Shown here piece by piece: positions 3,940 to 53,198 of a stretch of 64,000 nt of DNA. The position numbers and the translations under genes are program-made. This DNA comes from a virus. Position 1 is the stretch's first letter. Each line of letters opens with the position of its first letter. Under the pieces are notes generated by a model. That model saw only the letters and a program-made list of their open reading frames with translations, searched no databases and was not told the origin of the DNA. The DNA lies in the IMG/VR virus record IMGVR_UViG_3300043185_000079, one strand, 5' to 3'.

Positions 3940-3947
3940 CTCACAGC

Positions 3948-3961: not shown

Positions 3962-3981
3962 CCGATACCGTGGGAGAGACC

Positions 3982-6543: not shown

Positions 6544-6692
6544 TCACCCGTGTCGCCGCCCGACATGCCGTGCTCCGTTCGGCAACGGGTTACTTCCGCG
6601 AGGGCGAGGACATCCTGTTCGATCGCTACAACAAGGCCGGAAGAGGAACCGGACGATGGGCCTCTTCAACATCTGGAAGTTGTCTGAGGTGA
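6540..6692 (+). CDS. Small ORF (MITRVAARH...), possibly the frameshifted N-terminus of the next gene
   Basis: ATGA overlap with the previous stop; carries the RVAARH motif; overlaps the open upstream frame of the 6656 ORF. Confidence 0.4.
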   Translation: MITRVAARHAVLRSATGYFREGEDILFDRYNKAGRGTGRWASSTSGSCLR

Positions 6693-9600
6693 GAGGCCTG
6701 CCTCCAAAAACCGGACGTGGAGTCGCGTTTCATGGTACGCGGTCGAAGAATCTCGATCACCTGCGGCGTTATGGGCTCGTGCCTGGAGCACGCAGTGCGT
6801 ACACGGACGCCTATAGTAAGTACGACGACGGGCGTCATCTGTTCTTCACAGACAATGAGGACTTGGCGCGCCATTACGGAGACCTGATTCTGCGATTCCC
6901 TTGGCCAAGCGAAGCCAAGCCTGATGTTAACGAATTCGGACGCTATCTTCCTGGACAGTTCGTCTCCTTGCGGAAAATCCCGCCAGACGAGATCGATGTT
7001 TTGCGTGAGGGTACTTGGGAACCTCTCGTTGGAGGCTTGTCGAAGCAGGCCTGCATCATCGTCGGCAAGGACTTCGACGGCCACCTCTGTCTCCTCAAGA
7101 ACCGGGATCGGTCGTACGACGTCAAGCTCCAGATCATGCACATGGAGTTCAACGGCGTCGAGATGGCGTTCGTACTCGATCTCGAGACCGGCTACCTGGA
7201 AGGGGTCAACGAGCACGGGATCGGCGTTGTCAACACGACGCTCATGGTGCTTCATGATGAGGCAGAAGGGCACTCGACCAAAACCAAGGGCAAGACGACG
7301 CTCAAGTCGAAGGATGGCCCGAAGATCTTCCACGCCCTCATACAGGACAATCTCCAAGACGCGGTCGATGTTCTCGTGAGTTTCCGGGGAGGGATCCGCG
7401 GCCACACGTTCGTGGCCGACGGACAGACGCTGCTCAGTATTGAGTGCACTCGAAAGAACCCGGCCCGGGTACATCATCTCGATCCGGGGAGGGTCAACAC
7501 GAGGACCAACCATGGCGTCTCATATCCCGAGGCTGGGTACACGCGCGGCGAGGACTATGTCTCGTCCATCGTCCGTCGATGGGAGGCGCAGAAGCGGATT
7601 CAAGGGGTGAAGCGGCCAGAGGCCGCTGCTCCGGCCCTCGCAACGCTGATCGACGAGGCCGACAGCCCGTTCAATCCTGTCCGAGTGACTGACAAGATGC
7701 GGACGACGAGCCAGCTCCTCATCGATACGAGCACTCCGTCTCTCTACCTCTACCTTATTCCAGGTCACGCGCGCGTCACCAAGATTCTCAATCTCCTTCC
7801 CGGAGGCAGAGCACCGAAGATTCCCGTCCGGGTGTTTCGCTACCGCAAGCGGATGGAAGACCGAGACTTTGAGGACGACGGCCATGAGATGAAGGATGAA
7901 GTGGCAGATCCAGGAGGTGACTTGCTGGAGAAACGAACTGCTCGCTATAAGGACAAGAAGACGGTCAAGACCAAAGACGGCGACGAGCGAGTCATCTACG
8001 AGTACGGCCCGCGACAGGTCCTCAACCGCAACAAGGCCAAGGCGGAGCGTATCGAGAATCTGCGCAAGCAGATGTCGGCTCTCCGTCGGAAGGTCAAGAA
8101 GGACCTGGAGTCGTCCGACGACCAGAAACGCGCTGTTGCTCTCGCCGTCGCGCTGATGGACGAAACCTATGAGCGGCCCGGCAACGAAGCCAGTGCCAGC
8201 GAGGGTCACTACGGCGTGACGACGTGGCAGAACCGGCACGTCAAGTTCCGCAACGGAAAGGCCACGATCACATACGTCGGGAAGTCTGGAGTCGAGCACA
8301 AGAAGGTCGTCGAGACACCGGCAGTCGTGAAGGCTCTCAAGATGCTCTGCAAGGGCCGAGGGAAGGATGATCGCCTCATCGACGTCGAGGCGGCTGACGT
8401 CAACGAGTTCCTACGCTCGTTCGAGATTACGGCCAAGGACATCCGAGGGTTCCACGCGAACCGCGAGATGAAGGACCGTCTCAAGAGGATCCGCCGTGAG
8501 GGGCCGGATCTCCCGCGGCCCCTCAAAGATCGAGACAAGATCCTGAAAGAGGAGTTCAAGCAGGCGCTGGCCGAAACCGCTGAGGCCGTAGGCCATACCG
8601 AATCCACGCTGCGCAGCCAGTACCTCGTCCCCGGGCTCGAGGACGAGTACATGAAGGACGGCACCGTCAGCGACAGCCACGTGAAGTCCGGGGGGGCGGC
8701 CCTTCTAGGCGCTCCTGGGGTCCAGGAGCGCCCAGAAGGCGCGCTGAGGGTCGCCGCCACCCGAGGCACACCGACGGAGCGGAGGATCCTGGCGAACGCC
8801 CTGCTTGCCCCGGTGCTCGTAGTGCGCGATCGCCGCTGGTGGCTCGACGAGGCGCCGTCCCTCTACCGCCTGGCCCGTGACCACGAGCGGCCTAGACCTG
8901 TCATCGACGGTCTCCGGTTCGACCCCGACCTGTTCGCGATGCTCTGGTACGAGGACGAGGACGGGAACAGGTTGCCCGAACCGCCCATTGGGGACCTCGC
9001 AATTCCGGAGGACTCCCATACACAGCATTCGAGGTTCCCCAACGTGCTGCGGCACACCATCCTGTTGCTTAATGACGACGGGACGTCGTCGAGCCTCGCG
9101 GCTGGGGAAAGTTCCTTTCCCTCTGATCTCGTGACGCAGATGGTTCGCAGCGGCGACTGGGACACCGCAGACGCAATCATGGTTGCCGGCCAGGCCTGCG
9201 AGCGATGCCTCAACGTCCTGCTCCACCATTACGGGATCGGGGATGGCTACCCGTTCGGGTCCGAGGACTATTGGCGGGCGAACACAGTCTGTTCGATGTG
9301 CGAGGACATCGGCCGTCGAATGGCGACGAAGTCTCCCGCCGAGAAGGAGGATGAGAACGTCGAGAAGATGCTACGGCCGGAACCGAAGAAGAAGCCTCCG
9401 CGCTACGACCTCCGCAACAACAGAACGCTGGAGGACCGGGACGAGGACCTGGAGGGTATGGGCGCAGGAGATCGTGGGGATCGAGACTTGAGTCTCAAGT
9501 GGAACAAGGTCGCTCATCGGGTGGCGTTCCGGTGGCTGGCCGTTCCCCTCGCGCCCGCTCCTCTGCGTGTGGCAATGCGGCGCATCGCCAGGCAGTTCCC

Positions 9601-12541: not shown

Positions 12542-13171
12542 ATGAAACGTACAGCAGACGCAGGAAACTGGCAGGCCCGCGGACAAGAGTTCGCGGTGGG
12601 GCAAGCTGTGCGTCTCGTCAATGGCAGCCCAACCGACGAGGGTCGCGTCACCGCTGTCTGGCCTGGAATCGGATGCGTCGATGTGCAGTGGCCACACACG
12701 TCGTATCGCCACTTGGTTGAGGATCTCCAGATTGTCAACCCGGGCGAGGACGAGTTCGTCGCGCCCATGCACGAGGACGTGCCGGGAGGGCCCCCGTCCT
12801 CGGCGTGGGTCTCGCAAGGGGCCCCTCAGACGAACGAGATCACGCACGAGGACCCACGAGTCGAGTTCGTCCACGACATCGCGGGCAAAGTGGCATCTCA
12901 ACCGTCTGCGCAGCGGGTGGCGATCGCGTTCGTGAAGCATTCTCTTTACTGGCACGCTCGGGACCGGAAGTACCGCGTCAGCCGGGACGAACACGCAGAG
13001 GGCCGGTATAGATGCCCCACCCGTGGGTGCGAACAGATGTTGCGCCGTGCAACCTACAAGATGGAGAACGGATCTCCGATCAAGCTGCTCGCCTGCGGCT
13101 CGTGCTTGTTCATGATCCGCGAGCATGACGTACTCTCTGACCACTGCACTCCACATGAGGAGACCTGCTAG
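12542..13171 (+). CDS. Hypothetical protein with C-terminal Zn ribbon, probable head protein
   Basis: CPTRGC...CGSC; KRTA, KVAS and RVAIAF motifs. Confidence 0.7.
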   Translation: MKRTADAGNWQARGQEFAVGQAVRLVNGSPTDEGRVTAVWPGIGCVDVQWPHTSYRHLVEDLQIVNPGEDEFVAPMHEDVPGGPPSSAWVSQGAPQTNEITHEDPRVEFVHDIAGKVASQPSAQRVAIAFVKHSLYWHARDRKYRVSRDEHAEGRYRCPTRGCEQMLRRATYKMENGSPIKLLACGSCLFMIREHDVLSDHCTPHEETC

Positions 13172-13172
13172 C

Positions 13173-16151
13173 GTGGCGTTCCTCAAGCGAGCCAGCGGGG
13201 TCGTCGTTCATCGGGGGTGGTCTCCAGAGAACTGGGGCAACTTCGTCGGCCAGAACAAGGAGCGACTCGCGAATGGGCCGTACCGAACGGCCGCCGGGGC
13301 GCTGAACTTGGTCGCGCAGGCGAGCGAGATCCTCGGCGAAGAGTTCGATCCGAAGAACTTCCTCCTGACGCACGCGACGATCGTGGCCTCGGTCGACACG
13401 GAGGAGGCCGGGAACGTCAAGCTCGGGTCCGTCGTCGAGGACGGACGCAAGATCCTGCGCAAGTTTGGCGACTACAGGATCACGCCCGACACCGAGCAGT
13501 GGATCAACAACAACCACGACAGCTGGTCTCGCGGGGTCCTGCTCAAGAGCTACCGGACGTTCGTCGGTGCCCACAACTTCCTCGAGCACTGCCAGCTCGA
13601 GCACCTGTCGAAGGGTCGAATCGTCGACGCCGTCGCCCGCGACATCGGACCGTCGATCTACGTCGACATCCTCGTCGCCACCAACCGCAAGCACGCGAGC
13701 CTCATCCAGGACATCGAGAACGGCCGGATGGGCACGCTGTCCATGGGGTGCACTTGCGTGCACACGACCTGCACGAAGTGCGGGAACGTGGGCCATGATG
13801 AGACTGAGCTTTGCTTCCCTCCCGGCACTCGTGTACTGCTTGCCGAAGGCAAGTACCGTCCCATTGAGGAGATCGTCGAAGGCGATTTCGTGCTCTCTCA
13901 CACGGGTAGGCGTCGTGCTGTTGTTAGGACCATGCGCCGTGAGTACGAGGGCAACTTGGTGGTCCTCGACGTAGAGGGCGTTCCGGTCTCGGTGAAGGCA
14001 ACGCCCAAGCATCCGTTTTGGACGCTGCGACCAGCACAGATCTGTGCTTGCGGCTGCGGTCAACCCCTTCGACGGACCGTCGAGCACGAACGGGGATCCG
14101 CCAAGGCATTCAAGCGTCGATTTTTGCCACACCATGCCGGCTCTCTACACAACGTAGTATCGATGGACGCGTACCAGCGCATCTTCGATACCGAGATGGA
14201 GTTCGTCGAGGCACAGGATCTCCGTCGAGGAGATTACTTGGCCTTCCCGATTCCGCGCGACGTCGAGAACAGCGCGGATGCCACAGTCAACCGGGCTCGT
14301 TTGATCGGGTTCTTTCTGGCCGAAGGCAGTTTCATTAAGCGAGACGGCAGGAGGGTCGGCATCGCCTTTTCGTTTGGGTACCACGAGTACGACACCCTTG
14401 CGGCCGAGGTCCAGAGGCTTCTGAACCTTGAGTTTGGACGAGACGAGCGTCGGCAAGATTGTCTTGACTGGCAGGATTTGGTTGCTCGCAATCACACGCG
14501 GGCAATCAAAAGGCGCGCCAACAGCCGCGCCGTCCCTCCAGAGGTGACGTGTCCGACATGTGCTGCGCCCTCGCAGTACGCCTACAATGCCCGTTTCAAG
14601 GCGGGGCACGACGACTGTTATCAGTGCAAGGTATGTGGGCGCTCGTGGATCCACCAAGCGGACAGATCCCTTCACGCCACACGATACAAGTGTCCGATTG
14701 ACAGACCTGAGACTGGGTCCGTCGAAGTCCGGCTCATGGACGAAGAGGCGGCGGATTTTTTCTACAGCTACTGCGGCGAATACGCGAACGAGAAGGCGCT
14801 GGATCCATCGGTCCTGCGTTGGGCTCCTGATGTCCAGAGACACGTTTTGTTCGGGTGGCTCGGAGGAGATGGGACCCAGAGTGTGGTTGGTATCCGAGGC
14901 AACACGGCTTCCTTCCATCTCCAGAATCAGATGCACATTCTCGCCGCGCGGTGCGGTCTGTATGCCTACAGAACGGTCGTGTTCGACGGGAGATCAGGGA
15001 CCATCGATCAAGTGGTGAACGGTGACGGCTCTGTCACGGCGCGAGATTGCAGAGGCTGGCTTCCGAGCTTTGGTCTCGTGCTATCTGAGCCGAAGGGGTT
15101 CAATGGCGAGGTCCGGTTTTCCGATCGGGAGCCGCGGACCACCCTCACCGAGATGACAGATAGTTACAAGCGCGTTGGGGACTGGTTCGTCTATCGGATC
15201 CGAGATGTTGGCCGCGAGTCGTACTGCGGAACGGTCCACAATCTGGAAATCTCTGAAGACAACTCCTACGTGGTGGACGGCCTAGCTGTTCACAACTGTA
15301 ATCATGTGCGCTACGAGAAGGGCAACGCGTTCTACGACCAGAACGGAGTCCGCAGGAAGGTCGCCGAGCTGTGTGGCCACGCCAGCGAGGACCCGACCGG
15401 CGGGGTGAACTTCATCGAGGCGAGCTGGGTCGCCGTGCCGGCCTTCGCCGGCGCCGTGATGCGGAACATCTTGCAGCCGGAGGCCGTGAACGTCGCCACG
15501 AACGAGCAGGTGCGTAAGGTTCTTGCGTCACCGCCCCCCGAGTGGACTGATACTGATGACCACATACAGAAGGCAGCTTCAACGGAAGTTGCCAAAGTGG
15601 TGACTCCAGCGCGGCAGCCGAGGACCCAGGTCCACGTTGCTCAGTTCGGTCCGTCCGAGGATGAAAGCAGCGACGACGCTGCGACCGAGAGTACCGACTC
15701 TCTTACCGCGTTGGAGGACGAGATCGAGAAGTATCTTCTCGACAAGGTCAAGAAGCGCATCAAGGACAAGCTGAAGGCCGACGTCCAGGAGGAGGCGGCC
15801 TCTGAGGGTGAGCTGGCGACGTCTACGGGAGACTCCGTGGTCCACCAAGCCGCTCTTCGCATGGCGTTCGGCACGGACACGCTCCTGCGAATTGCTGGTT
15901 CTGACGTCGAGCTGGTCGACGGGCTCGCACGTCTCGCCGCCTCGCTCGGCATCAAAGTTTCGAGGGATCTCTATCGCACAGCACTCCGAGTGGGGCCCGC
16001 TCGGAGCCAGGAGTCCCTCGATGGGTACCTCTCCCGTTGTGGAGAAGTACTCGGTCGTCATCCGACGACAGGAGAAGCCAAGACCCTTGTACGTCTTGGG
16101 CGGATCCTTTCGATGCGGGCCCGCCGCTCCTCCGCACGGGGCGGAGATTGA
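13173..16151 (+). CDS. Prohead (maturation) protease precursor containing an intein
   Basis: GTG start with GAGGAG SD; HNFLEH...KGRIVDA...LSMGC serine-protease-like core, CTKC Zn motif, FIEASWVAVPAF; lies between portal and scaffold. Confidence 0.8.
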   Translation: MAFLKRASGVVVHRGWSPENWGNFVGQNKERLANGPYRTAAGALNLVAQASEILGEEFDPKNFLLTHATIVASVDTEEAGNVKLGSVVEDGRKILRKFGDYRITPDTEQWINNNHDSWSRGVLLKSYRTFVGAHNFLEHCQLEHLSKGRIVDAVARDIGPSIYVDILVATNRKHASLIQDIENGRMGTLSMGCTCVHTTCTKCGNVGHDETELCFPPGTRVLLAEGKYRPIEEIVEGDFVLSHTGRRRAVVRTMRREYEGNLVVLDVEGVPVSVKATPKHPFWTLRPAQICACGCGQPLRRTVEHERGSAKAFKRRFLPHHAGSLHNVVSMDAYQRIFDTEMEFVEAQDLRRGDYLAFPIPRDVENSADATVNRARLIGFFLAEGSFIKRDGRRVGIAFSFGYHEYDTLAAEVQRLLNLEFGRDERRQDCLDWQDLVARNHTRAIKRRANSRAVPPEVTCPTCAAPSQYAYNARFKAGHDDCYQCKVCGRSWIHQADRSLHATRYKCPIDRPETGSVEVRLMDEEAADFFYSYCGEYANEKALDPSVLRWAPDVQRHVLFGWLGGDGTQSVVGIRGNTASFHLQNQMHILAARCGLYAYRTVVFDGRSGTIDQVVNGDGSVTARDCRGWLPSFGLVLSEPKGFNGEVRFSDREPRTTLTEMTDSYKRVGDWFVYRIRDVGRESYCGTVHNLEISEDNSYVVDGLAVHNCNHVRYEKGNAFYDQNGVRRKVAELCGHASEDPTGGVNFIEASWVAVPAFAGAVMRNILQPEAVNVATNEQVRKVLASPPPEWTDTDDHIQKAASTEVAKVVTPARQPRTQVHVAQFGPSEDESSDDAATESTDSLTALEDEIEKYLLDKVKKRIKDKLKADVQEEAASEGELATSTGDSVVHQAALRMAFGTDTLLRIAGSDVELVDGLARLAASLGIKVSRDLYRTALRVGPARSQESLDGYLSRCGEVLGRHPTTGEAKTLVRLGRILSMRARRSSARGGD
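13812..15296 (+). mobile_element. Intein (495 aa) with LAGLIDADG homing endonuclease
   Basis: Starts CFPPGTRV; block B TPKHPF; LAGLIDADG-like LIGFFLAEGS and FGWLGGDG; ends VHNLEI..DNSYVVDGLAVHN followed by Cys +1. Confidence 0.95.
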
Positions 16152-20470: not shown

Positions 20471-21396
20471 GCCTCGACGACCTCACCGTCGAGGAGTTCA
20501 AGCGCCTCTACTATGAGGAGCTGTTCACGGAGGCGGAGATCGCCGATCGACTCGGCACTTACCAGGTTGCCATCAACCGTTTTCGGAATCGACACCAGCT
20601 GCCCGCGCTCGGGAAGACAGGCCGTATCGAGCGACAGCTGCCCGATCTCACGGACCTTCAGCGGAACATCCTCGTTGGATCTTTGCTGGGGGACGGCAGC
20701 ATGGCTGCACCGAGCCCGATCACCGCGAGGTTCTCCGAGGGACACAGCTTGGCGCAGAGATCCTACACGGATTGGAAGGCCGAGATCCTGGCTGACTATG
20801 TCTCGCAGAGGTACGAGAGCGTCAAGCACAAGGACGGTCGCACTTACGAGTCGTGGAACTTCGCGACGAGGACGACGACGAGGCTGCGTCCGTACTTCGA
20901 CCTCTTCTACGGATCGGGGGTGCGGGTGTTTCCTGACTCGCTGCCTACGCTGATGAATCCTCTCGTGCTGGCCGTCTGGTACCTTGACGATGGCGGGATC
21001 ATGCAGAAGTTTCATCCGCGGATCGCCTTCGGCCTCGACGATCTGAGCCTCGAGCGCGCGCTGGCCGGGCTCCGAGCGCTAGGATTCCGTCCGACAGTGC
21101 ACGAAGAGCAGAAGTGCCGGACGATCGCCTTCCCGGGCCAGGATCTGCGATTCTACGACATGGTGCGCCCCCACGTCCCACCCTGCATGGCGTACAAGCT
21201 GCCTGTGCTCAGTTCCCGCAAGATCAAGGACGAGAACGCCCGACGGTTGACGGTCGATGTCGCGCAGCACCTCGCCGCGCAGGGCATCTCCGTCACGGAG
21301 ATAGCCAGGCATTTCGGTGTCGGGCGCGCCACGGCCAAGCGTCGCCTCGACGGAGAGATTCCGAAGAGGATGGGACGTCCCGCGAGGAATCGGTGA
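20467..21396 (+). CDS. Second LAGLIDADG homing endonuclease with HTH domains
   Basis: LVGSLLGDG and LAVWYLDDG; ATGA overlap with the previous gene; paralogous to it. Confidence 0.88.
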   Translation: MSLDDLTVEEFKRLYYEELFTEAEIADRLGTYQVAINRFRNRHQLPALGKTGRIERQLPDLTDLQRNILVGSLLGDGSMAAPSPITARFSEGHSLAQRSYTDWKAEILADYVSQRYESVKHKDGRTYESWNFATRTTTRLRPYFDLFYGSGVRVFPDSLPTLMNPLVLAVWYLDDGGIMQKFHPRIAFGLDDLSLERALAGLRALGFRPTVHEEQKCRTIAFPGQDLRFYDMVRPHVPPCMAYKLPVLSSRKIKDENARRLTVDVAQHLAAQGISVTEIARHFGVGRATAKRRLDGEIPKRMGRPARNR

Positions 21397-22610
21397 AATC
21401 GTACCTCGACGTCGACGTCCATGCCGCCGCCATTGAGAGGCTCCGAGAGGTTTTCGCGAACTTCACGAAGGTCTACATCGCCTTCAGCGGCGGCAAGGAC
21501 AGCGGGGTCCTGCTCAACCTGACCGTTGAAGTCGCCAAGGAAGTCGGGAGACTACCGGTCGACGTCCTCTACGTCGACCTTGAGGCACAGTACGCGCACA
21601 CGGCCGACTACGTCCAGCGAACGTTATCCAGGCCCGAGGTGCGTCCGCACTGGATCTGCCTTCCCCTGCATCTTAGGAACGCGGTCAGCCAAGTCCAGCC
21701 TCACTGGCTGTGCTGGGACGAGCAGAAGCGCGACGCGTGGGTACGCGCGATGCCCGAGAACACTGGCGTGGTAAGCGACCCGAGCACGTTCCCGTTCTTC
21801 CGACGGGGCATGGAATTTGAAGAGTTCGTCCCGGAGTTTGGCGAGTGGCTCGCAGCGAGCGAGAACACCGCCTGTCTCGTAGCGATCCGCAGTGATGAGA
21901 GCCTCAACAGGTACAGGACGATCAGGAATGAGGCGAAGGAGACCCTGGAAGGGCGGCCGTGGACGACGCGGGTGACAGACCACGTCTGGAGCTGCTACCC
22001 AATCTATGACTGGAGGACCGAGGACATCTGGACGGCCAACGGTAAGTTCGGGTGGGACTACAATCGGATCTATGACCTGATGCACCTCGCTGGGCTCTCA
22101 TTGCACCAGATGCGGCTTTGTCAGCCGTATGGCGATGACCAACGGAAGGGGTTGTATCTCTTCAAGATGCTCGAGCCGGAAACGTGGTCGAGGGTCGTCG
22201 CGAGGGTCGAGGGAGCGAATTTCGGAAACCGCTACAGCAGGACGCAGTCGCACGTGATGGGGAATTTCAGGGTCTCTCTTCCGCCGGGGCACACCTACGA
22301 GAGCTACGCCAAGTTCCTTCTCGACACCATGCCGCCCTACTTGGCAGCCCACTATCGTCGGAAGATCGACAAGTTCTTGACTTGGTGGTACACGCACGGA
22401 GCCGAGCGGGGTTGTCCGTGTCCGGGGAGGATTCCCGACCAAACGGACCCGAGGCTGGAGAGCAGGCGCGCCGTCCCAAGCTGGCGGAGGATCGCCAAGG
22501 TGCTGCTGAAGAACGACTACTGGTGTAAGGGCTTGAGTTTTGCGCAGACGAAGCGGGAGATGGAGCGACAACTAGCACTGATCGCCAGTTTCTCGGAGGG
22601 GAACGGGTGA
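21393..22610 (+). CDS. ibrA: PAPS-reductase family / DUF3440 protein (IbrA-like)
   Basis: AFSGGKDS PP-loop, IRSDESLNR, YPIYDW, MRLCQPYG, SWRRIAKVLLKNDYWC; GTG start overlaps the previous stop. Confidence 0.88.
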   Translation: MKSYLDVDVHAAAIERLREVFANFTKVYIAFSGGKDSGVLLNLTVEVAKEVGRLPVDVLYVDLEAQYAHTADYVQRTLSRPEVRPHWICLPLHLRNAVSQVQPHWLCWDEQKRDAWVRAMPENTGVVSDPSTFPFFRRGMEFEEFVPEFGEWLAASENTACLVAIRSDESLNRYRTIRNEAKETLEGRPWTTRVTDHVWSCYPIYDWRTEDIWTANGKFGWDYNRIYDLMHLAGLSLHQMRLCQPYGDDQRKGLYLFKMLEPETWSRVVARVEGANFGNRYSRTQSHVMGNFRVSLPPGHTYESYAKFLLDTMPPYLAAHYRRKIDKFLTWWYTHGAERGCPCPGRIPDQTDPRLESRRAVPSWRRIAKVLLKNDYWCKGLSFAQTKREMERQLALIASFSEGNG

Positions 22611-33247: not shown

Positions 33248-33472
33248 ATGTCCGGAACAAGGAAAGTACGACTCACGCCACGCGAGGACGAGCTGTTCGC
33301 CATCGCTTGGTATCTCATTCAGGCCCAGAACGGCTCCGAGAAGGACCGTCACATTCAGTGGGCGCGCTACCACCTGTGGCGCGTTACGCAGGGACTCTTC
33401 GTTCATCAAGATCTGGTGGGCAACATCCACCATGTTTTCTGCGAGGCGTTCGGGGAGGGCTGTGATGACTAG
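33248..33472 (+). CDS. Hypothetical protein
   Basis: Short ORF overlapping the rtcB start. Confidence 0.45.
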   Translation: MSGTRKVRLTPREDELFAIAWYLIQAQNGSEKDRHIQWARYHLWRVTQGLFVHQDLVGNIHHVFCEAFGEGCDD

Positions 33473-34859
33473 CCTTGACCGCATCGCCCGCGCGCTCCGA
33501 CGTGACGGCGTCGAGATCGAGATGGATGGATCAATCTACAGGATCCGGCGAGCAGGGCACGAGGGTCCGTTCGCCGAGGTCCTGCTCCCTAAGGGCTTCC
33601 CGCTCGAGACCAAGGCCGTCGTGCAGCTCGCGGCATTCGCTTCCGCGCGCCATCCAAATGGGGGTCACGTGTGCCATGCCTGTGCCACGCCCGACTTCCA
33701 CCCTGGCAACGGTGTGCCTGTCGGGTCCGTCGTGGCCACCTCGCTCGACTTGGCCATCCCCTCTGCCATAGGGACAGACATTAACTGCGGGATGCGGATG
33801 CACGCGACGGGACTTTCCGTGGATCGGTTCCTCGCGGAGAAGCGCCGTCTCGTGGACGTGCTGCGCGGAGACCTGCTCCTCGGTACGCGCGACTTGCCCA
33901 TGACCGGCGTCTCCATGCGCGCCATGTTCGACGGAGGTGAACCCGATTGGCTGGACGCCGTGCTGGACCGTCCCCTCGGAATGCTGGCCCGTTCCGACCT
34001 CGGCCAGATCGGGAGAGAGATCGGAAACGGCTATCGAGGCCGGTGGAGCTGGGCCCCCGAGGGACTCGTCGACGATGGCAGAGAAATCGTGCGCGACGGA
34101 GCGCTTGGCACGGTGGGTGGAGGGAACCACTTCGTGGAATTCCAGGTGGTCGATGATGTCGCGGACGGCGGTCTCGCCCGCGCATGGGGCCTGAAGAACG
34201 GCGAAGTGGTCTTTATGGTTCACACCGGATCTCGGACCGTCGGGAAAGCAGTCGGGACTCGGTGGTCCGAGATCGCGCGGGAGCACTGGCCGTCAACGGT
34301 AAGACGACCAGACGTCCTCCCTCTGTACGGGGCTGACGTCGACGGGTACGTCGAGGCCATGAATACCGCTGCGAACTACGGCGCGGTCAACCGACTCCTG
34401 ATCGCCGAGATCGTCCGTCTACGGCTGCGGGAGATTCACGGGGACATAGGGGTTACCCTCGTGCACGATGCTCCCCACAATCTCGTCTTCCGCGAGGGAG
34501 ACATGCTCGTCCATCGGAAGGGAGCTACTCCCGCTCACGCCGGACAACCCGTGCTGATCCCTGGATCCATGGGGCAGCCCTCGTACGTTCTTGTCGGTCG
34601 CGGCAACGGGCGATACCTCTCTTCCGCGTCCCACGGGGCTGGTCGCGCGGTCACTCGCTTCGAGATGGGACGGCGCCAGAGAGCCGGAGACGATCTGGGT
34701 CTCGATGGGGTTGATTGCGTGACATTGAGAGAGGAACGGAGGATCGAAGAGGCTCCCTCGGCCTACAAGGACATTGGGCCCGTCGTTTCGGTGCAGGTCG
34801 AGCACGGCCTCGTCGCTCCTGTGGTTCGGACACGGCCGCTGGTGACATTCAAAGCCTAG
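33465..34859 (+). CDS. rtcB: RtcB family RNA ligase
   Basis: PDFH.G, GTDINCG, GGGNHF, HTGSR, HRKGAT, PGSMG, SASHGAGR, EEAP.AYK. Confidence 0.95.
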   Translation: MTSLDRIARALRRDGVEIEMDGSIYRIRRAGHEGPFAEVLLPKGFPLETKAVVQLAAFASARHPNGGHVCHACATPDFHPGNGVPVGSVVATSLDLAIPSAIGTDINCGMRMHATGLSVDRFLAEKRRLVDVLRGDLLLGTRDLPMTGVSMRAMFDGGEPDWLDAVLDRPLGMLARSDLGQIGREIGNGYRGRWSWAPEGLVDDGREIVRDGALGTVGGGNHFVEFQVVDDVADGGLARAWGLKNGEVVFMVHTGSRTVGKAVGTRWSEIAREHWPSTVRRPDVLPLYGADVDGYVEAMNTAANYGAVNRLLIAEIVRLRLREIHGDIGVTLVHDAPHNLVFREGDMLVHRKGATPAHAGQPVLIPGSMGQPSYVLVGRGNGRYLSSASHGAGRAVTRFEMGRRQRAGDDLGLDGVDCVTLREERRIEEAPSAYKDIGPVVSVQVEHGLVAPVVRTRPLVTFKA

Positions 34860-45439: not shown

Positions 45440-45697
45440 GTGTCAGACAACAATCTGAGCGGGTACCGAACATCCGACATGTACTACGCCGCATACCTGA
45501 AGGTCGCCGGGATGAAGCTGCTCGGGACTCAGCGAGAGGGCGGCAGGGTGTTTTTCGTCTTCGAGGAGAACGAGGGAAACGGGATCCGCGATCTTCGAGA
45601 TCAGTACTACAACCGCTCAAGCAAGGTTCCCGCGCTCACGTACGCCGACGAGATCAAGGTCATGAAGGCTCTCACGCACGAGGGACGAGGGGACTGA
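45440..45697 (+). CDS. DUF5659-like small protein
   Basis: AAGGAG SD; TSDMYYAAYL..G..L...GRVFFVF. Confidence 0.65.
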   Translation: MSDNNLSGYRTSDMYYAAYLKVAGMKLLGTQREGGRVFFVFEENEGNGIRDLRDQYYNRSSKVPALTYADEIKVMKALTHEGRGD

Positions 45698-45702
45698 AGA
45701 CG

Positions 45703-46284
45703 TTGCGCCTGGACGAGATTATAGCGGGGAACGACGTCGTTCAGCGCCATCTCGCCCAGGAGAGGCAGGCGTTGCTCGCCATCTCACCCATGGCTCGCTC
45801 CGCCATCGAACGCGAGATTCTGCCCCAGATCGAGAGCGGCGTCACGGGACCCGCGGCGGTGGACAGTCTGCGCGACTCGACGAAGGCCGAGATCGAGCGT
45901 GCTTTCCGGGCCAAGGACCCGGTCTACACGCGTCTGATCAGCTACAAGTCGATCGATCAGAGCGACACGCAGTATCTCAGCGATCTCCTCACGGTGATGG
46001 ACGAGTGGGCGACCAAGACACGGGACACGCTTGGTGACGACGACGCGGTGAAGCTCAAGATCGAGGTCGAGAGCGAGGTCGAGAGCGAGGTCAAGGTCAA
46101 GAGCGATGGCGGAGTCGACGTGGAGGTGAAAGAGATCCAGCGCGAGGTATCGCCGCCCCCTCTCGACAGCGTCTCCTTCGAGCCTCCTCTCAATGGTCTT
46201 CGCAATCTTGGGGCCCCGTCCGGCGAGGAGGAAATCCCTCTCGCTGACGAGGACGACTTCGACTTCGGGGACGTGAGGCTGTGA
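45703..46284 (+). CDS. Hypothetical acidic protein
   Basis: 193-aa ORF, TTG start. Confidence 0.6.
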   Translation: MRLDEIIAGNDVVQRHLAQERQALLAISPMARSAIEREILPQIESGVTGPAAVDSLRDSTKAEIERAFRAKDPVYTRLISYKSIDQSDTQYLSDLLTVMDEWATKTRDTLGDDDAVKLKIEVESEVESEVKVKSDGGVDVEVKEIQREVSPPPLDSVSFEPPLNGLRNLGAPSGEEEIPLADEDDFDFGDVRL

Positions 46285-46288
46285 AACC

Positions 46289-46795
46289 ATGGCCGTCTGC
46301 TTTCCGGTCGGAACCGAACTCGGTCGCAACGACCTGAAGATCTTTCTGGTCGACGAACTCGGTGTTCCCCTGAACGCCGCGGAGATCTACTACACGATCT
46401 TCTTCGTGGACCAGAGCATGGGCCCTCCGGGGGTTGAGGTGCAGATCGGGCCCACCGACCGTATCCCGGTCAATCCCTCCGTGGGGGAGTACTACGCTTC
46501 ACTGCTCGTTCCTCCAGGGGCGTCTCCAGGACAGTATCGGATCCGCTGGAGGTTCCGACGGACGCTCGCCGACGAGTTCCAGGAGGTCGTGCAAGAGTTC
46601 GGCGTCGACGATCCCGGGTCATGCGTCGACGGTCAGCCATTGATGTCGACATGCGAGGCCGGTCTCGTCGACAAGCTCCGCGTGCTGCTCCGGGACAACT
46701 GTGTGGGCGCCGAGGAGACCGTCGAGTTGGACGTGGACGGTAAACGGATGGTGGTGCGCATGGACGATCTGTGGGAGGCTCTGAAGGATGCGTGA
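46289..46795 (+). CDS. Fractured gene, N-half: N-extein plus 31-aa N-intein
   Basis: Ends LRVLLRDN|CVGAEETVELDVDGKRMVVRMDDLWEALKDA*; Cys-initiated intein block A at 46700. Confidence 0.8.
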   Translation: MAVCFPVGTELGRNDLKIFLVDELGVPLNAAEIYYTIFFVDQSMGPPGVEVQIGPTDRIPVNPSVGEYYASLLVPPGASPGQYRIRWRFRRTLADEFQEVVQEFGVDDPGSCVDGQPLMSTCEAGLVDKLRVLLRDNCVGAEETVELDVDGKRMVVRMDDLWEALKDA

Positions 46796-47624
46796 CTTCG
46801 ACCCTGTAAAGGCCACACTCGGGACGTTGTGTCGTAATGGGCATGACTACGACGGTACTGGTCAGAGCTTGCGTCGACTGAAGGAAAGGCGTGGGGTTGT
46901 TGTTCCTGCGGATTGTCTGCAATGTCAGCGCGAAGACAGAAAGAGACGATACGCCAGTGATCCCGAGCAGGCAAAGGCGTCTGCCAAACAGTGGTATGCC
47001 CAGAATCGGGAGCGAGTAGCAGATACCTTTCGCTCCTACTACCGGGAACACCGGCAAAAGCTACTCGAGTATCAGACCAGATACCGAGAAGAGAACGCGG
47101 ACCTCGTAAAGACCAGGAGATCTGTTTACTATCTTCGCGAGCGCGAGCAGATCAGGGCCAAGAGTCGTGCGTGGTATGTACTGAACAAACTGCGGGCGAA
47201 GGAATCCAGAGCAGCGTGGCGGCTCAGAAATCTCGTCAAAGTACGGGCATGGAACAGGTGGTATTCCGCTACCTCTCGGGGCCAAGAGCGTGCTCGAAGA
47301 GCCGCCACAAAGTACAGGATGCACAAGGTGACCCAACACGGCTCAGTGACCGTCGCATACAAGGAGGCGATGCTCGCAGCTCTAGGAGGTCGATGTCCTC
47401 ATTGTGGCGTCGTCTTGACGGTGTCTGGCCGACTGTCTCCGTCCTCCCTTACGTGGGATCATGTAGTGCCCCTCTCACACAACGGGCGCGACGACAACGG
47501 CAATCTCCTTCCTCTCTGTCATTCCTGCAACGCGAGTAAGGGGGATAGAACTCCCGAGCAATGGCTAGGACGTCCTGTCACTTGCGTTGCCGATTTGTTC
47601 GAGGATCTGAAGCATGCTCAATGA
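46788..47624 (+). CDS. HNH homing endonuclease between the split-intein halves
   Basis: CPHC...TWDHVVPLSHNGRDDNGNLLPLCHSCNASKG; overlaps both flanking genes; lower GC. Confidence 0.9.
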   Translation: MRDFDPVKATLGTLCRNGHDYDGTGQSLRRLKERRGVVVPADCLQCQREDRKRRYASDPEQAKASAKQWYAQNRERVADTFRSYYREHRQKLLEYQTRYREENADLVKTRRSVYYLREREQIRAKSRAWYVLNKLRAKESRAAWRLRNLVKVRAWNRWYSATSRGQERARRAATKYRMHKVTQHGSVTVAYKEAMLAALGGRCPHCGVVLTVSGRLSPSSLTWDHVVPLSHNGRDDNGNLLPLCHSCNASKGDRTPEQWLGRPVTCVADLFEDLKHAQ

Positions 47625-48507
47625 GGAGTCCAAGCGTAGGCTCAGAAGAGCTTTCCAGGAGGGACGGCTTCGTATCCTTTCGGTGTCTCCTGAAGGGCAA
47701 CAGCAGTGGAAACGTGTTTTAGCCGTTCACCGTGCCGAGGTAGGCCAGGAATCGATCTGGGAAGCCCTCACGGAACACGGGCCTATGGTACTCACGGGAG
47801 GTCACAGGGTTTTTGTCTCTCCGACCGAGAAGACGGAGATGGAAAACCTCCGTTCTGGCCAGAAGGTGCTCGGCGTCCTTGCGGATCAAGTCGGTGCCCC
47901 TACTCTCTTAGCCCTTAGGCGCGTTGAAGACCGCAAGTTCATGTACGACTTGACCGCCGAGGACTGGCATAACTTCGTTTTGCACAAGTCGAAGGTCGTA
48001 GTCAGCAACTCCCCGGATCGCAACTACCACTTTCGGCCGCCGGAACAGGAAGGCGTCATCAAGAAGTACAACCGTGTATTCGGATACATCTGGGAGGACT
48101 ACGAGCTGCTCTGCTATCTCCAGATGGGCTTGGATTGGTTTAACTCCTTCCCGCCGGAGACGGAGAGTATCCGGACCCTCAATGACCTCTGTGCCCGTAA
48201 GCCTGTGTGGCGGACGTTCATCCTCTGGGCTGCCGCCGTACATGCGCTGTTCGCATTGAGTGCGAATTGGGTGGCGGACGAATTTTCGTACTCCATCGGA
48301 GGTATCTCGCTCGACATCGAGAAGTCGTCGAAGTACGAGTCGCTCAAGAACAACGCCGAACAGCAGCTCGACAAGGCCACGGAGGCCAAGTCGAGGACCG
48401 TCAAGTTCATTCGAGGCCTACAGCAGCCGAAGTTCGGATTCGGCGTGCGTTCGGCTTTTGGCCCCGCGGTCGGCCGGGGGGTTCTTTCTCCTAGGAGTTT
48501 TGTGTAA
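47614..48507 (+). CDS. Fractured gene, C-half: 132-aa C-intein plus C-extein (probable neck/head-completion protein)
   Basis: Block B LTGGHRVF, block F MYDLTAEDWHNF, terminal SN|S at 48009/48010; extein FSYSIGGISLDIEKSSKY. Confidence 0.8.
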   Translation: MLNEESKRRLRRAFQEGRLRILSVSPEGQQQWKRVLAVHRAEVGQESIWEALTEHGPMVLTGGHRVFVSPTEKTEMENLRSGQKVLGVLADQVGAPTLLALRRVEDRKFMYDLTAEDWHNFVLHKSKVVVSNSPDRNYHFRPPEQEGVIKKYNRVFGYIWEDYELLCYLQMGLDWFNSFPPETESIRTLNDLCARKPVWRTFILWAAAVHALFALSANWVADEFSYSIGGISLDIEKSSKYESLKNNAEQQLDKATEAKSRTVKFIRGLQQPKFGFGVRSAFGPAVGRGVLSPRSFV

Positions 48508-48510
48508 AAT

Positions 48511-50190
48511 GTGAGTTTTCTCACGTCCACGGCCCTCCCGAAGCACACGAACGGCTGCTCCAAGTGGGAGGCGGTGATCGGGGTTCCTCCTTCCGAGTTC
48601 GACTTTGACAGGCACTTCCAACGGGGCCTGTGGGCCTCTGGGGCGGTCGAGGGGACCGACTACGTCCGATGCCTCCTCTGTGCCAAAGAGGGGACAGAGG
48701 CCCGTGTGAAGCGTCTGGCGGACCACCTCAAGCGGCTGCATGGCGGCATGTCACGGGCACAGTACGGGGCTCAATTTCCAGGGGCTCCCGTTGTCGCTCG
48801 ATCTTCGGGGGCCAAGCGTCAGGAGACCACCCAGTTGCGGTACGGAGTGGACAACGTCGGGCAGACCGATGAGGTCAAGGCGAAGACGCGTCGAGCTGCA
48901 CAGGCCAAGTACGGGGTCAGTCATCATCTCCAAGCGACAGAGGTGATCGCCCGTCGGGCTGAGACCAATTTGGAGAAGTATGGAACAGAGAACGTGTTCG
49001 CCTCCGAGGAAATCAAGGCCAAGATCCGAGCGACGAACCTAGAACGTTATGGCGCGGAGAATCCTCAACAAGCAGCAGAGATCAGAAGGCGTACGGAACA
49101 GACAACCCTCGCACGCCACGGAGCCTCGTCCTTCCTCCACTCTCCTGCGTGGTGCTTAGAGTTGGCGAGGAAGCGCGCCGAACGGGAACGACGGCAGCGT
49201 GAGGAGTTGATCAGGTCGGCTAACTACCAAATCTGCCCGCACTGCGACGAGGCGTTCACCAGGATCACGAGCCGCCACAAGGCGATCTGCGATGGCTGGC
49301 CCGACACAGAGATACCGGAGCCGTGTCTGTGCGGTCACGAGAGTACGAGCCTCACGCAGATGAAACGGCATCGACAGATCTGTGTTGTCTGGACGCTGCG
49401 CGATGCGGGCGCGGTGGCTCGTGCACGGTATCTACAGACTATGTTGGAGCGGCATGGAGTAGTACATCCGCTTCAATCGGAAGAGATCCAATCACGGATG
49501 GCGGCGACCAATCGAGAACGATACGGCGTAGACAATGTGTTTGAAGGAGACTCTCCCTTCTATGCTGAAATTCAAGCGGCTCTTGTGGGGAAACGTCCTG
49601 TTCTCCGAGGCGATGACAACCCGTTCGCTTGGCCGCAGGTGAAGGAGAAGATCTTGCGCGAGTGTCTCGCCAAGGTAGGCCACGAGTTCCCAGACTTCCC
49701 GGAGGCGGCCACTACGGTGGAGGATCTCGTCGAGCGTTACGGCATGACGCATCCAATGCAGGATCGGGATTTCGCGCGGACGATACTGCTCGCGCAGGGC
49801 ACGAACCGCGAACCGAACGGTCCTGAGCGGATGGTTCAGGTGTTGGAACCTCGACTGATGTACACAGGTGATCGGAAGTTCTGGAGGTGGCTTCCCCGGC
49901 TCGGACGGCACAAGAACCCCGACTTCGTGCTCCCCGGACCCGTGCCAGACCATCCTTTCCGCGACTTGCGTAAGGTGGTGGAGGTCAACGGAGACTGGTG
50001 GCACAGCGAGAAGTTCACGGACATGTGGCCCTTTGAGCACGAGTCTGAACTCGTGGCGGCTTACGCCGAGGTCGGTCTAGAGTGCTTGGTGGTCTGGGAG
50101 TCCGAGGTCAAGAGCGACCCTGAGGGAGTGCGTGCGCGGCTGCGCGCGTTTCTCGGAGGTAGCCTGCCTACGCCCGTTGCTTCGGCATGA
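48511..50190 (+). CDS. Putative homing endonuclease (TxLExYGV repeats plus Vsr/PD-(D/E)XK-like domain)
   Basis: Repeated T..E(R/K)YG..N motifs; C-terminal PDFV...VEVNGDWWH...LVVWESE. Confidence 0.75.
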   Translation: MSFLTSTALPKHTNGCSKWEAVIGVPPSEFDFDRHFQRGLWASGAVEGTDYVRCLLCAKEGTEARVKRLADHLKRLHGGMSRAQYGAQFPGAPVVARSSGAKRQETTQLRYGVDNVGQTDEVKAKTRRAAQAKYGVSHHLQATEVIARRAETNLEKYGTENVFASEEIKAKIRATNLERYGAENPQQAAEIRRRTEQTTLARHGASSFLHSPAWCLELARKRAERERRQREELIRSANYQICPHCDEAFTRITSRHKAICDGWPDTEIPEPCLCGHESTSLTQMKRHRQICVVWTLRDAGAVARARYLQTMLERHGVVHPLQSEEIQSRMAATNRERYGVDNVFEGDSPFYAEIQAALVGKRPVLRGDDNPFAWPQVKEKILRECLAKVGHEFPDFPEAATTVEDLVERYGMTHPMQDRDFARTILLAQGTNREPNGPERMVQVLEPRLMYTGDRKFWRWLPRLGRHKNPDFVLPGPVPDHPFRDLRKVVEVNGDWWHSEKFTDMWPFEHESELVAAYAEVGLECLVVWESEVKSDPEGVRARLRAFLGGSLPTPVASA

Positions 50191-50290
50191 TCTCGAGCGC
50201 GAGGAGAGTCACCCACGACGCGGTCTTGGTCGCGGCATTGGGGCGACGGGGAATGGTTTCGCCCGGCTCGTGGTAGCGGTTCTGTCGCCT

Positions 50291-50304
50291 GGTAGTTCGA
50301 CTAT
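50291..50304 (+). promoter_or_regulatory. Putative phage promoter motif copy (GGTAGTTCGACTAT)
   Basis: Intergenic, upstream of ATG 50322. Confidence 0.5.
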
Positions 50305-50321
50305 TGGTTGTCCAACATCAA

Positions 50322-53198
50322 ATGGTCCCGGGCTCCATCCTTGTTCTGCGTGCGATCCACACGGGAGTTCTCCCGGACGGACGGCCGAACTTGGCGTCGG
50401 TGTTGATCGATGATGCGGATTTTGGGTTTGAGCAGCAACATCGAAAAACTGCGGTGTACGTCCCGGTTGGTGGCTTCATCGATCTCGCTTTGACCTCGAG
50501 GACTTTGTTCTCGTTGACAGACGGGAACATCGCAGGGCACGTCCGCACGGGTGTCTTGCGGGTCGACATGTTCATCCGTCTCCGCAACCCTGCGGATCTC
50601 GGCGGTCCGCTCGGGGCTGGTGTCCCTCTTGCGGGAGCGGTCCCGAACCTTCAGCGTGTGGGCGGAGTTCTCCAACTGGTGATCGATGCTGCGACTGCCC
50701 AAGGGTACATCCTGGGCGAGTCCCTGACGGTAGCCGGGCTGGTGGGTGCTCTGCGTCCCCTCAATGGGACGTACACGATCTCTGCGGTTGCCAAGGGGGA
50801 GAATTTTGCCGGGGTGTCTCCGGTCCATTTTCTCCTCTCTGTCCCGTCTGCCGGTCCCGACATTGCAGCAGTGACACTTGCGGGGGTCACCCTGACTCTC
50901 CCCGATGGGAAGGTTCGTATTGAGTTATCCGGTTCAGGAAACGCGGGTGGGATTTCGGCTGAGTCTGCGCTCTACGTTGGCGGCGACGCGAACGTAGTGG
51001 GGGCGATTGATCCGACCTCACAGCAGATGACTCCGGTGCCTTCTGCTGGTGTTGCTCCTGTGTCGTTCTTCGTCCAGGACATCGACGGGGTTCCCTACTT
51101 CAAGGATGCTGCCGGAGTTCTCCACGCCATGGTGGGTGGGGGTGGAGGAGGTGGTGGTGGGAATGACGTGGTGTACCGGCCAGGGGGGACGGCGGGAGGG
51201 AACGTCTACACGACCTGGGCCACGGCGTACGCGGCGGCGCTCACGGTTTTGCCGGCACGGATTATCGTCGACAGCTCGTTGGTGAGTCCTGCTCCGCTGG
51301 ATGCAGGGGCGTGGGACATGGCGGGGATGTCCTTGGCGGGGACATTCAACAGCATCGTCCCAAGCTGGCTGGAGATCCAGGACGGGGCAACGATCACGAA
51401 CCTCTTCTACGTCACGAACTTGTTGCAGATTTCAAGCGTTAGCTCGCTGCCTGCAATCACGCCTCTTCCCTTCATCGCATTCCTCCTGGATTACGGGGCT
51501 TCGTTGTTGGGAACTGGGCCGGCTCCCATCATTGAGTTTTCCAGCTCCTCGGGGTTCGTCCTTCAATTTCTCGGATCACAGATCATCGGTCCCAACGCCA
51601 TCGGTGTGGTGGCTCCGAACGTGGTAGGAATTGCTCTGTATGCTTCGACGTTTCTGAGCAACGACAGCATCACGGGGACCGGAAGTCTCGATATCTTCAT
51701 TCGAGATGCCACGTCGAGCATTGGTGACGTACAGACGGGGTTGACGGGAGGGGTTTCTGTCAATCTTGACCTGGCTTCTTCCCAAATCGGGTTCAGTACA
51801 AGCAGTTTCCTGGCGTCTACGGATGTCCAATCCGCGATCAACGAGTTGGCGAACTTGTCCGGGGTTCCGGTTTTCGTGTTCCGGCCAAGCGCTGGTACTT
51901 CAGGGAACATCTACGACGACTGGTTCGCTCTGATGGGCACCGTGGTGCAGGTTCTTCCGCATCGGCCCATGATCGTGTTCGACGACACCTTCGCGCCATG
52001 CACAGTCCCGGCAGGCGTTTGGGACCTGACGGGGGTGACCTTGGCGGGTCGGTCAACGCTCCTTTTTGGAGGACCTACCGGCACGTCAGTGACCTTGGCT
52101 GACGGGTGCGTGTTCTTGAATCTGGAGAGGGTCACGGGCCATCTGGACCTCATTTCGATCAGCATGGCGCCCGTCTTTTCGTGTATCGGTACACAGAACT
52201 ATCTGGTGATTGAGGAGGGGTCGAGTCTTCGGGCTACGGGGACGGACTCGTTTCTCAGTGTGGCTTCCGCAACTTTGACCGTTGAGTTGCGGGACGGAGC
52301 GAAGTTCCTTGCCGGGCCTTCTCCTGTTCTACAGAATGATCCCCCAGGTGGGACCGCTGTTCTCATCATCAATGATGGGGCAGTGGTAGAGGCGGACACG
52401 TTGGGTGGGACGATTGGGGGGACTTGGACAGTCATCTTCCGGTCCCCTGCCCACCAATTCTCCGGCACTCAAACGGGCCTGACTGACGTCTTGACACGTC
52501 GGTACGAGTATCCGCTTGGACCTGGATCCGGGGGATTTGGGTACTTCTTCGACGACTTCACCTCCACCGTGGTAGCCAGCTCGCTGCAGTGGAGCGCAAC
52601 CGCCAACGGAGCGGGCAGTGGCGTGTTCGTGGATACGACCTTGGCCACTGCCGCGAACCCAGGGATCAGGCGTCTGGATACCGGGACCACGGCTGCGGGT
52701 CGAGGACTACTTCGGCAGAGCCCCACGATGGCGTACTTGGGGATGAGTGGGGAGTCGTTTGTTGAATGGGTTGTCCGAATCCCGACGTTGTCCACAGTGG
52801 GTGTCGAGGACTATTTCGTGAATGTTGGGTGGAACAACAACACAACCGGAACACAAGGGACGCAAGCGATTGCTTTCCGCTACGATGACGGGAATTGGAT
52901 CGCGTATGCCCGGGCTGGTGCTGCGGTCGACACCTCGACCATCGACACGGGTATTGCTCCTGTTGCGGGGGCCTGGACGAAGCTGCGCATTGAGACGACC
53001 CCCGCAGGGGCGTTTTTCTACATCGGGACGAGCCCGGGGACCTTGACTCTCGCAGCGACAATGCTCCCAGCCGTCTTGCCGACCACCCTTGGGCTCCTGG
53101 CCCCCATGGCGATCATCCAAAAACAGGCTGGATTGCTGAGTCGGACCATGTTCGTGGACTACTGCCACTTCGGCTACACGCTGTACACGTCGAGGTAA
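50322..53198 (+). CDS. Fibre/appendage-like structural protein
   Basis: N-terminal ~230 aa paralogous to the 55070 gene; poly-Gly hinge; duplicated central beta-rich unit; lectin-like C-terminal domain (FFDDF...W...). Confidence 0.65.
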   Translation: MVPGSILVLRAIHTGVLPDGRPNLASVLIDDADFGFEQQHRKTAVYVPVGGFIDLALTSRTLFSLTDGNIAGHVRTGVLRVDMFIRLRNPADLGGPLGAGVPLAGAVPNLQRVGGVLQLVIDAATAQGYILGESLTVAGLVGALRPLNGTYTISAVAKGENFAGVSPVHFLLSVPSAGPDIAAVTLAGVTLTLPDGKVRIELSGSGNAGGISAESALYVGGDANVVGAIDPTSQQMTPVPSAGVAPVSFFVQDIDGVPYFKDAAGVLHAMVGGGGGGGGGNDVVYRPGGTAGGNVYTTWATAYAAALTVLPARIIVDSSLVSPAPLDAGAWDMAGMSLAGTFNSIVPSWLEIQDGATITNLFYVTNLLQISSVSSLPAITPLPFIAFLLDYGASLLGTGPAPIIEFSSSSGFVLQFLGSQIIGPNAIGVVAPNVVGIALYASTFLSNDSITGTGSLDIFIRDATSSIGDVQTGLTGGVSVNLDLASSQIGFSTSSFLASTDVQSAINELANLSGVPVFVFRPSAGTSGNIYDDWFALMGTVVQVLPHRPMIVFDDTFAPCTVPAGVWDLTGVTLAGRSTLLFGGPTGTSVTLADGCVFLNLERVTGHLDLISISMAPVFSCIGTQNYLVIEEGSSLRATGTDSFLSVASATLTVELRDGAKFLAGPSPVLQNDPPGGTAVLIINDGAVVEADTLGGTIGGTWTVIFRSPAHQFSGTQTGLTDVLTRRYEYPLGPGSGGFGYFFDDFTSTVVASSLQWSATANGAGSGVFVDTTLATAANPGIRRLDTGTTAAGRGLLRQSPTMAYLGMSGESFVEWVVRIPTLSTVGVEDYFVNVGWNNNTTGTQGTQAIAFRYDDGNWIAYARAGAAVDTSTIDTGIAPVAGAWTKLRIETTPAGAFFYIGTSPGTLTLAATMLPAVLPTTLGLLAPMAIIQKQAGLLSRTMFVDYCHFGYTLYTSR

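Follow-up and report, generated by a model that had tools for sequence, protein, structure and literature searches.

In a 64,000-nt stretch of viral DNA from IMG/VR virus record IMGVR_UViG_3300043185_000079, here called the window, the gene for a probable head-to-tail adaptor (neck) protein lies in two pieces, with the gene for an HNH endonuclease between them. The reading that best accounts for the data, to which we assign a probability of about 0.85, is that a freshwater phage of large size (at least 145 kb) has its neck gene fractured here, and that the two products of this gene, an N-extein with an N-intein (168 residues) and a C-intein with a C-extein (297 residues), are joined by a class-1 split intein. 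An earlier note on this DNA, made without database searches, had proposed a structural gene rejoined by an atypically split intein with an HNH gene in the break; this proposal is supported by homologues that span the junction, by the Hint fold of the intein family and by the conservation of its residues.

Results

A gene in two pieces that is contiguous in intein-less homologues

The break involves three open reading frames (ORFs; genes 1, 2 and 3, Table 1) on the + strand, which lie in three different frames, have a start codon each and overlap by 8 nt (genes 1 and 2) and 11 nt (genes 2 and 3). A GAGGA motif resembling a Shine–Dalgarno sequence precedes the gene 3 start by 8 nt. When the ORFs and their translations were checked, the coordinates and motifs reported in the earlier note proved to be correct, base for base. 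The nucleophile of the N-intein is Cys138 of gene 1 (codon at 46700), while the C-intein of gene 3 carries the motifs TGGH (T61, H64) and MYDLTAEDWH (D112, H119) and ends in VVVSN, followed directly by Ser133 (codon at 48010). The translation of gene 3 also bears out the remark that the C-intein is without any Cys. A scan for promoters and terminators found nothing between the three genes and no terminator-like site on the + strand, and a repeat scan of the break gave just short repeats, at chance level. The two-piece layout is not a product of chance, because the same architecture recurs in many diverged relatives.

Intein-less homologues are contiguous at the position where trans-splicing had been predicted to generate ...LRVLLRDN-SPDRNYHFRPP... 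(here and below, a hyphen marks the junction). A large protein search yielded 1559 relatives of gene 3. Two intein-less proteins of 302–304 residues, P0092 and P0098, are 84–89% identical to the window exteins and read LRDN-NPDRNYHFRPPEQEG without interruption; P0131 reads LRDN-SPDRNYHF, with Ser at the position where the predicted spliced product of the window has it. Among phage records searched by tblastn, gp319 of Tunturiibacter phage Tunturi_5, a contiguous protein of 283 residues annotated as 'head-tail connector protein', has LLSDE-DPDRNYHFRPP over the junction. All four proteins are contiguous across LRDN-[NSD]PDRNYHF, and residues 1–137 of the N-extein align with intein-less homologues of 297–304 residues. 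The neck gene has two intein sites, one in each of its best-conserved motifs (NPDRNYHFRPP and DEFDYSIGG); the second site, ADEF-SYSIGG, is empty in the window.

Free-standing endonuclease genes often lie inside group I introns, and the ORFs at this locus overlap. Both facts would suit a scheme in which an intron, two frameshifts or translational bypassing eliminates or skips the HNH region, before translation or in its course, to give either an uninterrupted intein or a maxi-intein that contains the HNH domain. Such a scheme is extremely unlikely. An Rfam search of positions 45500–50500 at E-values up to 1 revealed no intron and no other RNA family, which leaves removal at the RNA level, an outcome that the earlier note regarded as fatal to its proposal, with no matching intron in that region. 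Furthermore, the three ORFs occupy three frames with start codons of their own, and relatives that have no nuclease nevertheless keep the stop codon, a gap of 80–270 bp and a new Met start.

The fragments belong to one Hint-fold intein, broken after its first helix

In several relatives (P0008, P0020, P0068, P0072, L021, L024 and L041) the same site is occupied by an uninterrupted mini-intein of 154–177 residues. In these proteins the sequences of the window N-intein and C-intein are joined via a short linker, the N-intein aligning to residues 1–34. The AlphaFold2 model of the L021 intein, for which the input alignment included both window halves, has a predicted local distance difference test (pLDDT) score of 97 and a predicted template modelling score of 0.91. 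The 50 best Foldseek matches listed for this model are all Hint-fold domains, and all are inteins except two bacterial intein-like and two Hedgehog autoprocessing domains; they include NrdJ-1, Npu DnaB, TFIIB, VidaL (6vgv) and Aes123 PolB1, with the best template modelling scores at about 0.75–0.8. A family profile of the joined intein, compared with PDB sequences, matched KlbA (6.1e-11), Pol II (5.8e-8) and NrdJ-1 (3e-4). The match to KlbA and the Hint fold modelled for the L021 relative agree with the suggestion, made when the locus was first described, that the two fragments together constitute a Hint domain.

The same model indicates where the intein is broken. Its elements are beta1 (residues 7–12), beta2 (15–20), alpha1 (21–30), a loop (31–36) and alpha2 (37–45), and the split alleles end and restart in the 31–36 loop (alignment columns 32–41), after alpha1 and before block B. 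The N-intein has 31 residues in the window and 29–44, with a median of 34, among 65 alleles. As judged from the model, the break is at the S2 site, the loop after helix alpha1, of a class-1 intein; the likeness to the AceL and GOS TerL inteins is one of break position and N-intein length. An echo of 'WEAL' in the two halves (DDLWEAL in the N-intein, SIWEAL in the C-intein) was considered as a possible duplication scar and rejected, as both segments are present in uninterrupted relatives too.

Conserved intein residues, purifying selection and predicted docking of the halves

Conservation was assessed in 54 C-fragments (52–82% identical to the window) and 65 N-fragments, the two sets together spanning 45–86% identity. 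Cys1, which is Cys138 of gene 1, is invariant in the 65 N-fragments; T61, H64, D112 and N132 are invariant in the 54 C-fragments, and H119 is at least 90% conserved. The +1 residue, Ser in the window, is Ser or Cys across the family. The penultimate Ser and the Ser at +1 had both been singled out as unusual, and neither turns out to be so. With an SN-S C-terminal junction in 37 of the 54 alleles, penultimate Ser is the norm of the family and, because most alleles share it, no sign of decay, and the pairing of Cys1 with Ser+1 is ordinary for phage split inteins.

It could be argued that the halves only associate, or that they act as separate subunits, so that the neck protein is a non-covalent two-chain protein with no peptide bond across the break. 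The missing penultimate His is in keeping with this, splicing is so far predicted, and the complex prediction described below speaks to docking and not to chemistry. However, the residues that serve chemistry only (Cys1, the Thr and His of block B, the Asp of block F, the terminal Asn and the Ser or Cys at +1) are invariant over dozens of diverged alleles, and in the uninterrupted relatives this intein has to splice for the host protein to be released. We consider an arrangement of this kind unlikely, and trans-splicing the better account of the locus.

The ratio of non-synonymous to synonymous substitution (dN/dS) between the window and L003, a relative with 82% amino-acid identity, is 0.10 for the N-extein, 0.06 for the N-intein, 0.11 for the C-intein and 0.06 for the C-extein, with synonymous sites near saturation. 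Both intein halves are under purifying selection, at a dN/dS of about 0.06–0.11, and in more distant pairs the N-intein diverges less than the N-extein. These values bear on the possibility that the gene was broken recently and is decaying, the insertion of the HNH gene having killed the adaptor gene and left the phage defective or dependent on another gene. The HNH gene is indeed a rare occupant, known from five relatives, and the window contig comes from one metagenome sample, possibly its own source. Against recent breakage, both ORFs are intact, with low dN/dS despite near-saturated synonymous divergence; the split is older than the HNH gene, being common to L003 and to many alleles that are about 50–60% identical; and the start/stop overlaps, together with the GAGGA motif before gene 3, have been preserved. 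Decay is thus very unlikely, and a functional fractured gene remains the preferred explanation.

The earlier note had drawn attention to an acidic N-intein and a basic start of the C-intein. In the window the net charge is −5 for the N-intein and +4 for the first 22 residues of the C-intein, and the opposition holds family-wide, with means of −7 over 30 residues and +2.7 over the first 22 residues, respectively. Docking was assessed by complex prediction with residues 118–168 of gene 1 and residues 1–150 of gene 3, alongside three controls. The pair scored 0.89, and the best of the three controls 0.00; of 80 solved complexes, 58 attain the mark applied, as do 2 of 110 mismatched pairs, counts that hold only roughly here because our own alignments were used. 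The runs share at least 89% of their contacts, with a partner pLDDT of at least 79. Predicted contacts are between residues 135–168 of gene 1 and blocks B, F and G of the C-intein, and also involve the +1 residue. This prediction supports docking of the two intein halves on each other, with the proviso that, because split-intein complexes are already in the PDB, the pass may in part reflect likeness to them and is not independent proof.

The split outlasts its nucleases

An HNH gene had been recognized in the break, and the product of gene 2 indeed matches Pfam HNH (PF01844) with an E-value of 1.6e-9 (38.2 bits vs a cut-off of 21.4), as well as many PHROG HNH and endonuclease VII families. The Pfam families HNH, HNH_5 and HNH_4 all match residues 203–258, and the residues of the HNH motif and the Cys-rich zinc knuckles (C203, C206, D224, H225, N239, C244, C247 and N248) are invariant in six relatives. 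Relatives of this HNH protein are scarce: only five were found in a set of 5.8 billion proteins and none in the viral contigs. A metagenome scan with the HNH alignment picked out generic HNH motifs, the long matches being at most about 31% identical and none lying beside halves of the adaptor gene. Two of the relatives, P0223 (60% identical) and P0225 (46%), have longest contigs whose lengths, 13,597 and 15,096 bp, recur among relatives of gene 1 and gene 3 (P0124, P0004 and P0155), which suggests that these HNH genes may lie in the same break of at least two other phages. Among sequencing runs, no RNA run was listed for the locus; the only run listed, of DNA from a freshwater metagenome, is probably the source of the window DNA and not independent evidence, and its contigs showed one uninterrupted form and no HNH-less joint.

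Scans of viral contigs located relatives of gene 3 at 269 loci. Intein-less, uninterrupted and split forms are all present among the best 80 of these, on contigs of up to 619 kb. The split seen here, of a type that the earlier note called rare, is in fact widespread among large phage contigs in metagenomes.

In nine of ten other split loci tested, the break is occupied by a TnsA-like PD-(D/E)xK ORF (Pfam PF08722). Because the TnsA-like nuclease is the usual occupant, we regard the HNH gene of the window as a rarer and probably secondary one, which would have arrived later. L003, the closest DNA-verified relative, keeps the split without the HNH gene, and its DNA homology to the window breaks off precisely at the start codon of the HNH gene. 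The break of L003 is not a clean empty site: its 119-bp gap (3882–4000) encodes 'RWSFHVWTE', the C-terminal signature of TnsA-like ORFs. Similarly, only the C-terminal 'W.F.[VI]WTE' end of a TnsA-like ORF remains in L042 (3228–3500) and L093 (3404–3482). L025 matches L026 except that 771 bp within the nuclease ORF (L026:2623–3393) are missing; the flanks are 99–100% identical. That the split outlasts the loss of the nuclease argues that trans-splicing works.

The host is a probable neck protein

In its AlphaFold2 model (mean pLDDT 71), an intein-less relative has an N-terminal immunoglobulin (Ig)-like sandwich, a helical core and a C-terminal arm of low confidence; the beta-sandwich, residues 1–107, is modelled with high pLDDT. 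Comparison of model residues 123–276 by VIA-align gave Z-scores of 8.0–9.6, middling for helical folds, to more than 12 adaptor or neck chains, among them those of Pa223, A4, T4 (gp13/gp14), GP4, SU10, P1, 812 and Mu. The helical core and extended C-terminal arm of the model align to these chains, at scores in the range where helical folds can match by common arrangement. Unlike the solved adaptors, it has an additional N-terminal Ig/macroglobulin-like beta-sandwich, and there is no significant sequence similarity. Gene 3 has a weak match to PHROG 17327, 'head-tail connector' (E 0.0037). A Foldseek search of the extein model against the PDB found nothing clear, just Ig-like matches to the N-domain, and a BFVD search returned unnamed viral proteins. 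From the recurrence of one class of protein among the VIA-align matches, the weak PHROG match and the annotation of the Tunturi_5 homologue, the host protein, of about 302 residues, is judged a probable head-to-tail adaptor, in line with the neck-like role that had been suggested for it.

A second intein and neck genes in three pieces

A second intein is found in the neck gene of some relatives (Table 1), inserted at ADEF-(S/D)YSIGG and having Ser at both position 1 and +1. It is either uninterrupted or atypically split, with an N-intein of about 30 residues. Four of these relatives (L049, L061, L093 and L075) have a neck gene divided in three, with both inteins split, and in L093 both breaks are without any nuclease gene.

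Table 1. Features of the fractured neck gene (positions in the 64,000-nt window) and relatives with a second intein (positions in their own contigs).
Feature	Position	Strand	Description
Gene 1	46289–46795	+	168 aa; C-terminus ...LRVLLRDN, then CVGAEETVELDVDGKRMVVRMDDLWEALKDA, then stop
Gene 2, HNH endonuclease	46788–47624	+	278 aa; start overlaps end of gene 1 by 8 nt, stop overlaps start of gene 3 by 11 nt
Gene 3	47614–48507	+	297 aa; residues 1–132 are the C-intein, followed by Ser133
N-extein	46289–46699	+	Residues 1–137 of the probable neck protein; Ig-like beta-sandwich and first helix, ending ...LRVLLRDN
N-intein	46700–46795	+	31 aa, CVGAEETVELDVDGKRMVVRMDDLWEALKDA, at 46700–46792, plus stop; beta1, beta2 and alpha1; Cys1 nucleophile
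C-intein	47614–48009	+	132 aa; alpha2 and remainder of the Hint horseshoe; T61-G-G-H64, D112/H119, S131-N132
C-extein	48010–48507	+	165 aa plus stop; SPDRNYHFRPP... from Ser+1; probable helical adaptor core and conserved C-terminal arm
Second-intein relatives	L015:3590–4381 and 5321–5947; L049:2128–5849; L061:2086–5865; L093:2903–5019; L075:2456–5018		Proteins P0010, P0042, P0130 and P0131

Other genes of the window

A second selfish nuclease gene lies beside the neck gene. This gene (48511–50190), which encodes a 559-residue protein of the DUF7487 / PHROG 'homing endonuclease' type, starts 4 nt past gene 3; a relative is found in the same place in LR745208 (L001:5023–6456) and a longer one in L070 (5082–7871). 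Elsewhere in the window, a 1008-residue ORF (13125–16151) matches Hint and Intein_splicing and also has a LAGLIDADG-like domain; its product is probably a host protein with an uninterrupted maxi-intein. Genes for the handling of RNA and DNA that are typical of very large phages are present at 3970–6051, 6656–11692, 21114–22610 and 33432–34859. Among their products are a poly(A)-polymerase/CCA-adding head domain with a 2'-5' RNA ligase-like domain, a 1678-residue protein with a eukaryotic-type topoisomerase I core, a PAPS-reductase/DUF3440 protein and an RtcB RNA ligase (E 1e-94).

Discussion

We propose that the three overlapping ORFs are co-transcribed, and that the acidic 31-residue N-intein would then dock onto the 132-residue C-intein, with its basic N-terminus, to complete the Hint fold. 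Cys138 of gene 1 would make a thioester, Ser133 of gene 3 would attack it and Asn132 would cyclise, leaving the exteins ligated as ...LRVLLRDN-SPDRNYHFRPP.... The HNH gene would be a free-standing homing endonuclease gene that entered the break later. In an ancestor, a TnsA-like gene most likely fractured the intein, and the nucleases may since have decayed, been lost or been replaced.

Several points weigh against this proposal. Neither a spliced product nor a transcript nor a virion peptide is on record for the window or any other allele. The penultimate residue is Ser and not the common His. The window C-intein alone matches Pfam Intein_splicing with an E-value of 0.02, which falls short of the cut-off, and its matches to solved inteins are weak, as expected because it is a diverged fragment. 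The structural scores behind the assignment of the host as a neck adaptor are middling and its one PHROG match is weak, and homing by the HNH endonuclease is deduced only from the position of its gene and its absence in relatives.

Genes fractured by split inteins have been described before (PMC2677866; Dassa, London, Stoddard, Schueler-Furman and Pietrokovski, 2009), among them a terminase locus that is fractured at an unusual N-terminal point and has a free-standing endonuclease and a 122-residue C-intein; opposite charges of the intein halves were reported for other fractured genes. As in that terminase locus, the C-intein of the window has all motifs but N1, and, as in the fractured genes of that study, the halves are oppositely charged and allelic split inteins at one insertion point resemble each other. 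The present locus differs from those in that its host is a probable virion neck or adaptor protein, rather than an enzyme of DNA metabolism or a terminase; in that the occupants of the break are HNH (window) or TnsA-like (relatives) nucleases, rather than members of a Vsr-like family; and in that intein-less, uninterrupted, nuclease-occupied and nuclease-decayed states are all found in one gene family.

Short N-inteins form an established class, natural atypical N-inteins having 15–37 residues, and within it the AceL and GOS TerL inteins are split at S2, after helix alpha1, with N-inteins of 25–37 residues (PMC13014065). The window intein resembles these two in its short N-intein, in its break after alpha1 as placed by the L021 model and the alignment, in having Cys at position 1 and in its metagenomic phage source. 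It differs from them in host protein and insertion site and in its penultimate Ser and Ser+1, and it is known from sequence alone. VidaL and PolB16 are likewise naturally split with a very short N-intein, and the VidaL structure is among the Foldseek matches noted above; these two, however, are split at S1, after beta2, with N-inteins of 15–16 residues, so that the window split falls one secondary-structure element later. In addition, PolB16 is cysteine-less, whereas the window intein would use Cys1. Among the papers searched, none described an intein in a neck or adaptor protein, or this intein family. The arrangement itself is already known; the present case stands out by its structural host protein, its HNH occupant and an unusually complete evolutionary series.

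On balance, we lean towards viewing the neck-gene family as a natural library of S2-type split inteins with N-inteins of about 30 residues, in which all stages from uninterrupted to split occur in one gene, and in which some relatives carry a second split intein and so have the gene in three pieces, with two presumably orthogonal reactions. The stages of the series, on this same tentative reading, would be the empty site, the mini-intein spliced in cis, the fracture occupied by a nuclease (of either of two families), the decaying nuclease and the nuclease-free split.

Natural split inteins with an N-intein of a size suited to synthesis are few (AceL and GOS TerL, VidaL and PolB16) and are wanted for protein semisynthesis and labelling. 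To these the locus and its alleles contribute a set that is large and diverse and evidently under selection, including the Cys-free C-intein of the window and Ser+1. The series of forms, seen side by side, can be used to test the 'gene-breaking' model of split-intein origin and the turnover of homing endonucleases. Finally, the neck gene indicates that an essential virion assembly protein, besides replication enzymes, can depend on what is here predicted to be trans-splicing.

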